Below are positions 1-2,175 of a stretch of DNA of 64,000 nucleotides, piece after piece. Within the stretch, counting starts at the first letter, position 1, and each line of letters opens with the position of its first letter. The notes under the pieces were generated by a model that did no database searches, was not told where the DNA came from, and saw only the letters and a program-made list of their open reading frames with translations. The stretch comes from Malacoraja senta (Eukaryota): contig CM075995.1 in assembly GCA_038087875.1 (NCBI GenBank), positions 8,992,001 to 9,056,000 of the forward strand, written 5' to 3'. The position numbers and the translations under genes are program-made.

Positions 1-477
1 TCAGGCAACTGAAACGTCCTCTCACCAACTAGAGAGCGGTCCTGACCTCTCATCCCTCCAATCCCTGCATGTCCATGTACCCGTTTAAAAGCATCTTAAA
101 CCCCACTATCGTATCTGCCTCCACCACCACCACCACCCCTGGCAGCGCGTTCCAGGTACCCACCACCCTTTAGTCATAGGGTAGTTAATCTGTGGAATTC
201 ATTGCCACAGAGGGCTGTGGAGGCCAAGTCAGTGGATATTTTTAAGGCAGAGATAGACAAATTCTTGATTAGAACGGGCGTCAAGGGTTATGGGGAGAAG
301 GCAGGACAACAAGGCAGAGATCAGCCATGATTGAATGGCGGAGTAGACTCGATGGGCCGAATGGCCTACTTCTACTCCTATAACTTGTGAACTTGCGAAC
401 CACCCTCTGAGTTAAAAAGCAACTTGAACCGCACATCTCCTGTAAACTGTATTCTGCACTCTCTTTGCTCTACCTAT

Positions 478-1594
478 AAGCGAGTTCGGTATTCCGAAAA
501 AACGCATGGAATCGTGGGATTTGTCAAAGGTTGTAAGCTATAAGGGTAAATAGATCTCAGCAGGGGGGGGAGACTGGGCGGAGGGGAGACCCGCATGCGC
601 TGCTGAACTGTCCCCGGTCCCCCCCGCCACTCGAGACGTCTGGACCGACGGGACTCCGGCCCCCAGGCCCAGCGCGGAGAAGCGCCAACCCCAACACCAG
701 CGGCCCCAGCCCCACAGAACCCACAGCCAGCACCAACTCCAGCCCAATCCCGCTCCAACTCCAGAGGAACCCGCTCCCCGCTGGGCCACTAGGGCGACAA
801 GTGTCAGTTCGCCCACGGCCTCAGCCACCACCCCAATTACAAGCCGTACCTTGCACACCACCGGCTTCTGCCCCTACAGTACCCGCTGCCACTTCATCCA
901 CAACCCCGATGAGGAGCGATTGCCCCGGCCTCGTCTGTGCCAGAGCGCCAGCCTGGGCTCAACCTCCTCCGGCCCGGCGCTAGACTGGGCCGCACTGCGG
1001 GCGGCTTTCAGCCCCGACCTGGAGTTGGAGCTGGCCCGGACTCTGGGTTTGGGGCTGTGCAAGGGAGGGGGAGGACGTTGCTGCTGCAGCCAGCACCACC
1101 ATCACCAACAGTACCCGCAGCTCCAGCTGGCGCCCGTCCTGCCCATGGCCGGCAGGAGCCCGCCCGCAGACTCTCCGACCAGGACGACTCCAGCAGCAGC
1201 GGCTCCGAGTCGCCCGTCTTCGAGCAGGGCTGGCGGCTGCCCATCTTCAGCAGGGTCTCGGTGTCAGACTGAGGGGAGGGGGGTGGAGGTGGAGGGCTGC
1301 CGGGACCAACCCGGCGGGACAGGCAGAGCCGAGCTGGAGCCAGCGGCTGCAGGTCCGGGGCCGCACCGCCAGCCCAGGGCCATCCTGTACACCTCCGGAC
1401 AGGGACGGGACACCGGGGAGCGGACGGGGACGTCCCAACAGCAACTCAACAGCACCCGCAGCGACGGAGAGCCAACCCCAACCCGACTACGGACGAAACA
1501 CAAGCCTGCAGCAATGCAGCACCACCGTTGCCAAGTGTTTTATAGCTAGTGACCTATGACCTGGCCATGCGCAGTCGGAATACCGAACTCGCTT
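478..1594. mobile_element. Non-autonomous TIR DNA transposon (ISL2EU/PHIS-like) carrying a host gene fragment
   Basis: Perfect 20-bp terminal inverted repeats AAGCGAGTTCGGTATTCCGA (478-497; reverse complement 1575-1594), with patchy subterminal similarity (CGCATGG, GTCA.AGGT, AGCTATAA). AT flanks both ends (476-477, 1595-1596). Removing the element restores tctacctATtgtact. No transposase. Superfamily inferred only from the 2-bp AT TSD. Confidence 0.8.
793..1272 (+). pseudogene. ZFP36: Degenerate ZFP36/TTP-family tandem CCCH zinc-finger gene fragment
   Basis: GDKCQFAHG-LSHHPNYK (793-843); after a frameshift RTLHTTGFCPYSTRCHFIHNPDEE...RPRLCQSAS; after a second frameshift near 1171, SDQDDSSSSGSESPVFEQGWRLPIFSRVSVSD* (family CNOT1-binding C-terminus). 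In-frame TAG at 790-792, internal deletions, no upstream ATG. Exact paralog uncertain. Confidence 0.88.
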
Positions 1595-2175
1595 ATTGTA
1601 CTAGTATTTGATCTAATTGTATTAATGTACACACAATCTGCATTTAGCATTGACTAAACTTCCCAAAGTGCTTTATGGAAACTCTCACGGACATGCAAGG
1701 CAAAATAAATGTAAGTCTTTTTTGCGTTCTAAACTCCATTTTATTGGCAGGTGCAGCATAGAAACTAAGGCAGGCATATCTAATACGTGTACACGCTCCC
1801 ATGGTTAATAACTGGTGCACACGGATCCATTTTGGTCAAAGTCCTGAAAAATATTAGTTGCCTCCTTTCCAGTTAAACTGTCCCTGTTCTCAGACCTCTA
1901 CTCCAGCAGTATACAGCGGGAATGGTTTGTTTGAATGCTTGCACATGGTACAGAGCTAAAATACCAGGAAATAAGCAGAAATAAAAATGAATCACATCCA
2001 TCCAATGGCTAAGTGCATCGCGTATAACGAAATAGAAATAAAATATTGCGCTGGAGAAACAAAAGAACTGCAGATGCTGATTTACAACAAAAAAAAAGAC
2101 ACCTAGTGCTGGAGTAACTCATCGGGTCAGGCAGCATCTGTGGTGTGAAGAAGGGCCAAAATGTCACCTATCCAT

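Follow-up and report, generated by a model that had tools for sequence, protein, structure and literature searches.

The element at positions 478-1594 of the window, the 64,000-nucleotide stretch of Malacoraja senta DNA analysed here, is very probably a decayed non-autonomous ISL2EU copy. It carries, probably as a passenger, a piece of the last exon of a ZFP36/tristetraprolin (TTP)-type gene that was likely captured once and then likely moved in trans.

The ends of the element form an inverted repeat of 22 nt (476-497 and 1575-1596), found to be 100% complementary in a scan of the window. The repeat was parsed as a 20-bp terminal inverted repeat (TIR) plus the flanking AT. The TIR 20-mer occurs twice in the whole window, against 0.00 occurrences expected by chance. 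The unit of 1,117 bp with perfect 20-bp TIRs and a 2-bp AT duplication, described in an earlier note made from the letters alone, was thus borne out, as was the absence of a transposase: no match to a transposase family was found in the four frames of the window copy that were scanned.

The element interrupts an interspersed repeat, which may be a LINE-like tail. The left flank has 2,048 matches in the genome compared with 11 for the control. A DNA search with the left flank returned no spanning empty site for the window copy; a pattern search did find such sites. A second AT is absent from all 20 host-repeat copies inspected, and TGTA follows in 15 of them, as in the right flank of the element. 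Under a strict rule of eight matches in ten, one AT is found in 2 of the 20 copies and two ATs in none. Because all 20 empty copies hold a single AT, the insertion of the window element was clean, as the same note had claimed. Elsewhere in the window, a short interspersed repeat occurs several times at 2100-2450, in either orientation; a 66-bp tandem pair and a 70-bp near-palindrome are among these copies.

Table 1. The window element, its parts and the repeat that it interrupts
Feature	Position	Strand	Basis
Interrupted host interspersed repeat	445..1625	+	~445-477 and 1597-1625, outer limits approximate
Left AT target-site duplication	476..477	.	Sequence; single AT in host-repeat paralogs; AT on both sides in 48/62 family elements
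Left 20-bp TIR	478..497	+	Inverted-repeat scan; 665 exact matches in the genome, 0 in control
Left arm	478..784	+	First 54 nt common with autonomous ISL2EU end (91% to L171); remainder is non-autonomous backbone, rich in GC
Captured ZFP36/TTP-type last-exon piece	785..1294	+	Matches parent L077 1544-2136
Right arm	1295..1594	+	Backbone common to cargo-free relatives; last 107 nt match the autonomous element end (78% to L171)
Right 20-bp TIR	1575..1594	-	Inverted-repeat scan; 20-mer count
Right AT target-site duplication	1595..1596	.	Sequence; family flanks; host-repeat paralogs

The cargo consists of half of finger 1, finger 2, the C-terminal region up to the stop codon (1270-1272) and 22 nt of the 3'UTR. 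It matches the zf-CCCH profile (E=2.4e-4) and the structure of the TIS11d finger (1RGO, E=1.4e-7). The assignment to the ZFP36 family made in the earlier note therefore stands, but the borders it gave, 793-1272, do not, since the parent-derived segment extends beyond them on both sides. The C-terminal tail of the cargo is presumably NOT1-binding; a PDB search with its 34 C-terminal residues as the query gave no matches. In the window copy the cargo is broken by a TAG at 790-792 and by deletions of 18 nt after 818, 11 nt after 842 and 4 nt after 1170. The premature TAG lies three codons past the codon that closes the left arm, CTG at 781-783 in this copy.

The parent of the cargo is a third ZFP36 paralog (L077, contig C3041), which has no TIR and whose exon 1 lies about 1.2 kb upstream. 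The finger lead-in pattern has eight matches in the genome: four in two C2 genes, two in element copies, one in an unrelated short frame and one in L077. The parent fits the ZFP36/TTP family in its tandem CCCH fingers and conserved C-terminal tail, and is distinct from ZFP36L1 and ZFP36L2. The two C2 genes group with the latter two; in an unrooted tree, which carries a long-branch warning, the L1+L2 group including these genes is split with 100/99 support from the parent, reptile TTP and fish ZFP36. L077 and its batoid orthologs are joined with 100/99 support. ZFP36L1 and ZFP36L2 were ruled out as the source of the cargo, as they match at just 73-77% over short stretches.

The assembled parent contains two compensating 1-nt indels. 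These are likely to be assembly errors, because the element copies and the orthologs P0001 and P0002 lack them and keep the frame. No family element was found in the ~32 kb scanned around L077, where the contig ends 105 nt beyond the short cargo end; as expected of a Pack-TIR, the parent is unlinked to an element. The single intron of the parent (L077:1-1100) is very GC-rich and has short tandem-like units, and the gene is situated at the end of an unplaced contig.

The cargo starts exactly at parent position 1544 in 27 of 44 cargo elements, and in none does it start more than 3 nt further upstream. The later starts of the remaining elements are the result of decay or deletion. At the capture point GCCG is present both in the cargo-free relatives and in the parent, forming a 4-nt microhomology. 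Three copies (L103, L123 and L111) retain more of the 3'UTR, as far as parent positions 2172-2215, together with ~85 nt absent from the assembled parent. The founder would accordingly have held ~670 nt of parent coordinates plus these ~85 nt. With a founder of this length, the 3' cargo junction of the window copy is a later deletion and not the original capture point.

In a sample of 36 copies, biased toward relatives of the window copy, the finger linker and the finger-2 lead-in are both retained in 11. An 11-nt piece is missing from about 12, and 10, among them the window copy, have lost an 18-nt piece as well. The shared 5' junction followed by these nested deletions suggests that one capture explains the cargo copies. 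The 3' deletion would have come first, then the 11-nt and then the 18-nt deletion, in copies that were still transposing; the window copy has all three. The nested deletions are common to many insertions, so that cargo which was already broken kept transposing.

The cargo lies within one exon and hence contains no intron by which a DNA template could be told from an RNA template. The microhomology and the absence of poly(A) favour capture from DNA, and a single capture of the last-exon piece, through template switching while DNA was being repaired or replicated, is likely; this step would be in keeping with the microhomology and with PMC8277862. Alternatively, a fragment of ZFP36 mRNA or a retrocopy might have been patched in from an RNA or cDNA template and then amplified by transposition. 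The wholly exonic cargo would suit such an origin, as would the LINE-derived pieces that, judged by eye, are frequent inside family members, and retrogenes have been amplified in this manner in bat Helitrons (PMC4224331). However, the three long-form copies have neither poly(A) nor a separate target-site duplication around the cargo, which breaks off within the 3'UTR, and the 5' junction shares its 4 nt with the backbone. An RNA template is thus unlikely.

The captured sequence has since changed without constraint. In 37 copies compared over their last 122 codons, non-CpG sites diverge from the majority by 4.4% at both 0-fold (249/5654) and 4-fold (64/1462) positions (p=1.0), the counts being cells and not independent events. 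At CpG sites the divergence is 13.0% and 15.8%, respectively (p=0.12). A frameshifting indel is present in 28 of the 37 copies. The parent differs from the cargo majority at six positions, all of them synonymous. Taken with the equal 0-fold and 4-fold divergence of the copies, this shows constraint on the parent and none on the copies. The cargo is probably without function today and would be a passenger with no present protein function.

It is nevertheless conceivable that some copies are functional, either through a truncated protein of finger 2 and the C-terminal tail initiated at a backbone ATG, or through RNAs regulating the parent. In 26 of 36 copies the backbone codon that is CTG in the window copy is an ATG in frame with the cargo, and TTP recruits CCR4-NOT via its C-terminal domain (PMC7832405). 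Furthermore, the sample covers about 45 of the ~270 copies. However, only six of the 26 ATG frames reach the native stop and none of them keeps finger 2, whole transposing lineages share frameshifting deletions, and the ATG is also present in the cargo-free relative L063. With the equal divergence at the two classes of site, these observations make functional copies very improbable. It is likewise improbable that one of the copies, with a transposon ATG fused in frame to finger 2 and the CCR4-NOT-recruiting tail, or small RNAs derived from the copies, would dampen the skate parent gene or the decay of mRNA.

The passenger belongs to a large family. In the 1.94 Gb of genome searched, at least 1,408 left ends were found with up to two mismatches, compared with none for the control. 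Both ends are common to the 4,691-bp element L171 and to all 62 distinct two-ended elements, of which 48 have AT on both sides. The left AT is preceded by A in 48 of the 62 and the right AT is followed by T in 49, whereas the next base out is A in 9 left flanks and T in 13 right flanks. In-silico empty sites of four elements (L071, L046, L039 and L056) match paralogs holding one AT. Empty sites with one AT, which the earlier note had led us to expect, were thus obtained for these four and for the host repeat of the window; its proposed check for an orthologous empty site gave none among the junctions listed in the four comparison runs.

An AT duplication gives the same outcome as blunt insertion of an element with T...A ends into A|T, and by sequence alone the two are inseparable. 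That the family inserts without duplication in the manner of Spy, its T...A ends placed between AA and TT, is nonetheless highly improbable: Spy prefers AAA|TTT and mostly lacks a second ORF (PMC4122938), whereas the outer bases seldom complete such a site here and the partners carry both THAP and YqaJ. Membership in Spy was accordingly rejected on the outer bases and on the presence of two ORFs instead of one.

The autonomous partners were found by searching with YqaJ and HTH_Tnp_4 for elements having window-type TIRs. These are L174 (5,400 bp), L171, L145 and L144; there are also variants whose ends differ slightly. Between its TIRs L174 has THAP, HTH_Tnp_4 and a partial DDE_Tnp_4 on the same strand, with YqaJ on the opposite one (YqaJ E=2e-9 in L174 and E=3e-9 in L171). 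A family copy on C4, with 83-89% DNA identity to L174, has a full THAP-HTH-DDE frame of 526 aa (DDE_Tnp_4 E=1e-47). Its homologs occur in molluscs, echinoderms, amphioxus and fish as unnamed THAP-HTH-DDE proteins. None of the copies found combines TIRs with two intact ORFs, and no TIR pair was recognised around the intact C4 transposase.

ISL2EU elements have the target A|AT|T, a THAP-HTH-DDE transposase and a second ORF with YqaJ, and average 4,840 bp (PMC4122938, PMC4482050). The skate family shares the target and both ORFs, and its partners are 4.7-5.4 kb long. However, the TIRs of the window copy and of its partners begin with AAGCG, whereas those of ISL2EU usually start with GG, which is a tendency and not a strict rule (PMC4482050). 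From the target site, the TIR-linked domains and the YqaJ ORF, there would be a strong, although not complete, case for filing the family under ISL2EU (PHIS group). The suggestion of ISL2EU that the earlier note had drawn from the AT duplication fits the flanks, the empty sites and these domains, and the autonomous partner it had proposed to look for is found in L174 and L171.

The C4 frame (L187:751-2331, ~41.095-41.097 Mb) is intact, and its YqaJ partner has no long frame. Leucoraja erinacea has an annotated full-length protein (P0121) that is 97% identical to the C4 transposase, with 15 differences. Domestication of this transposase is not supported by comparison with family copies (0-fold 52/932 vs 4-fold 8/186, p=0.59); a recent domestication would still be compatible with this negative selection test. 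A Rhinoraja longicauda protein named SETDB1-like (P0232), a fusion or chimeric gene model, matches half of the transposase at 64% and has a THAP domain.

Other YqaJ loci (L161-L170, L172, L173 and L175-L180) were rejected as partners; they lack a window-type TIR, except for one weak end in L169. Two of them represent a second ISL2EU-like family with other TIRs, which is possibly younger: L163 (C341:10700-20600) has a 551-aa YqaJ+PHD frame and a 413-aa HTH-DDE frame, and in L164 (C61) there is a YqaJ frame of 551 aa together with an inverted repeat of 18 bp, ~4.5 kb apart. Repeated 237-aa YqaJ frames without a window-type TIR are found on many small unplaced contigs (L088-L092 and L094-L096). 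Three more, of 467-588 aa and spaced ~20 kb apart, are situated at C8:25.31-25.36 Mb (L079-L081), likewise without such a TIR.

The cargo was counted with a 23-mer probe placed where the coding region ends. It has 275 matches in the genome with up to two mismatches, including the parent, and none in the control, and it would catch 27 of the 28 cargo loci picked by BLAST after two duplicates were dropped. Cargo-bearing copies therefore number about 270, or about one for every five of the 1,408 left ends. Among the first 30 exact probe matches, the right TIR is present in 26, the left in 22 and both in 21; the three with neither still match the backbone. Conversely, some cargo is present in 8 of 26 elements picked by their TIR alone. 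The window element is thus one copy of a multicopy gene-carrying TIR family, as the earlier note had put it. The copies are situated on many contigs in different flanks, with their own AT pairs and the same cargo junction. Host-derived sequence is therefore found between TIRs with a target-site duplication, as in other Pack-TIRs, and the distinct flanks indicate transposition after capture, likely performed in trans by the THAP-HTH-DDE transposase of the family, to ~270 sites. The alternatives that a gene piece entered a single empty element after the latter had inserted, or that segmental duplication spread the copies, are refuted by the copy count, the TIR pairs and the shared junction with differing flanks, and have practically no probability left even with the near-identical pairs L021/L023 and L028/L029 among the first 30 loci.

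That the family transduces genes in general was not upheld. Apart from the one capture, six-frame searches of seven same-TIR elements against Pfam, which took in 6 of the 18 cargo-free elements, found no other protein-gene cargo, just a SAP piece of the family's own ORF2; this is evidence for one capture rather than a general gene-transducing family. Nor was an inflated apparent size of the ZFP36 family seen, as there are no short ZFP36 pseudo-proteins among 39 annotated candidates of 67-214 aa.

Some members have a composite structure. In the cargo-free L064, L066 and L068 the subterminal inverted arms are long and imperfect, and pieces of other repeats are present, which makes the backbone itself a mosaic. 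The cargo-bearing L042 and L050 contain 290-360 nt derived from the autonomous left end, as well as near-right-end sequence repeated internally; the autonomous-derived piece of L050 includes the SAP-domain start of ORF2. The make-up of L042 and L050 suggests gap repair from an autonomous element. In some copies there are short inverted cargo pieces (C8:19400957-19401026, C2:145881778-145881830 and C6:22703557-22703591), which, if transcribed, could form hairpins.

Most autonomous copies differ from their majority by ~3-6% at non-CpG sites and 2 of 15 by 8-11%. The similar divergence of the cargo, 4.4%, is in keeping with a single period of activity. The right junction of the window copy is crossed by a contig from another organism (X8), which reaches 39 nt into the element and shows 26 differences in ~540 nt; this insertion therefore predates at least one species split. 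A second contig (X3) crosses the same junction with 24 nt inside the element, below the 31-nt threshold. The cargo is covered by many contigs in all four comparison runs.

The skate family resembles the Pack-TIRs surveyed in 100 animal genomes by Tan et al. 2021 (PMC8277862): host sequence lies between TIRs at distinct target sites, the parent is distant and GC-rich, and the junctions show microhomology. In that survey, multicopy cases were rare and small: 4 of 370 Pack-TIRs (1.4%) were multicopy, with examples of 3 and 5 copies, whereas the skate family has ~270 copies with coding cargo. Multicopy animal Pack-TIRs were mostly hAT and TcMariner, and the elephant shark had none (PMC8277862). 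In the text and supplements of the survey, 'ISL2EU' has no matches and PIF-Harbinger has 37, which could hide lumped ISL2EU. As the pipeline was aimed at young cases with a unique parent match, families like that of the skate would be undercounted (PMC8277862). No published report of the skate element was found in literature searches; Repbase and Dfam, which were outside their scope, may hold an unlabelled consensus. The family is well supported as a high-copy Pack-TIR of a vertebrate, and it belongs to a group and a lineage for which these searches found no report of such an element.

ISL2EU was not detected in the elephant shark, a gain at the base of teleosts was proposed, and more cartilaginous species were called for (PMC9179366). 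The presence of the family in a skate, another cartilaginous fish, weakens entry into vertebrates at the teleost base only. For work on the skate TTP gene, the cargo copies can confound read mapping, probes and knockouts. With founder-like copies, nested lineages, the parent and an autonomous partner in one genome, a detailed reconstruction of the capture mechanism is possible.

Like plant Pack-MULEs, the skate element is a non-autonomous TIR element that amplifies a gene fragment. It differs in superfamily and target-site duplication, and in that one capture reached a high copy number; in rice, Pack-MULE captures number in the thousands and about a third are multicopy (cited in PMC8277862). 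In vertebrates, bat Helitrons likewise carry host gene pieces on DNA transposons at high copy number, with 12,382 copies over 110 elements having captured gene fragments (Thomas et al. 2014, PMC4224331), so that high-copy gene capture was already known there by another mechanism. However, Helitrons are rolling-circle elements without TIRs or target-site duplications (PMC4224331), whereas the skate family indicates that captured coding sequence can reach hundreds of copies via a vertebrate cut-and-paste transposon.
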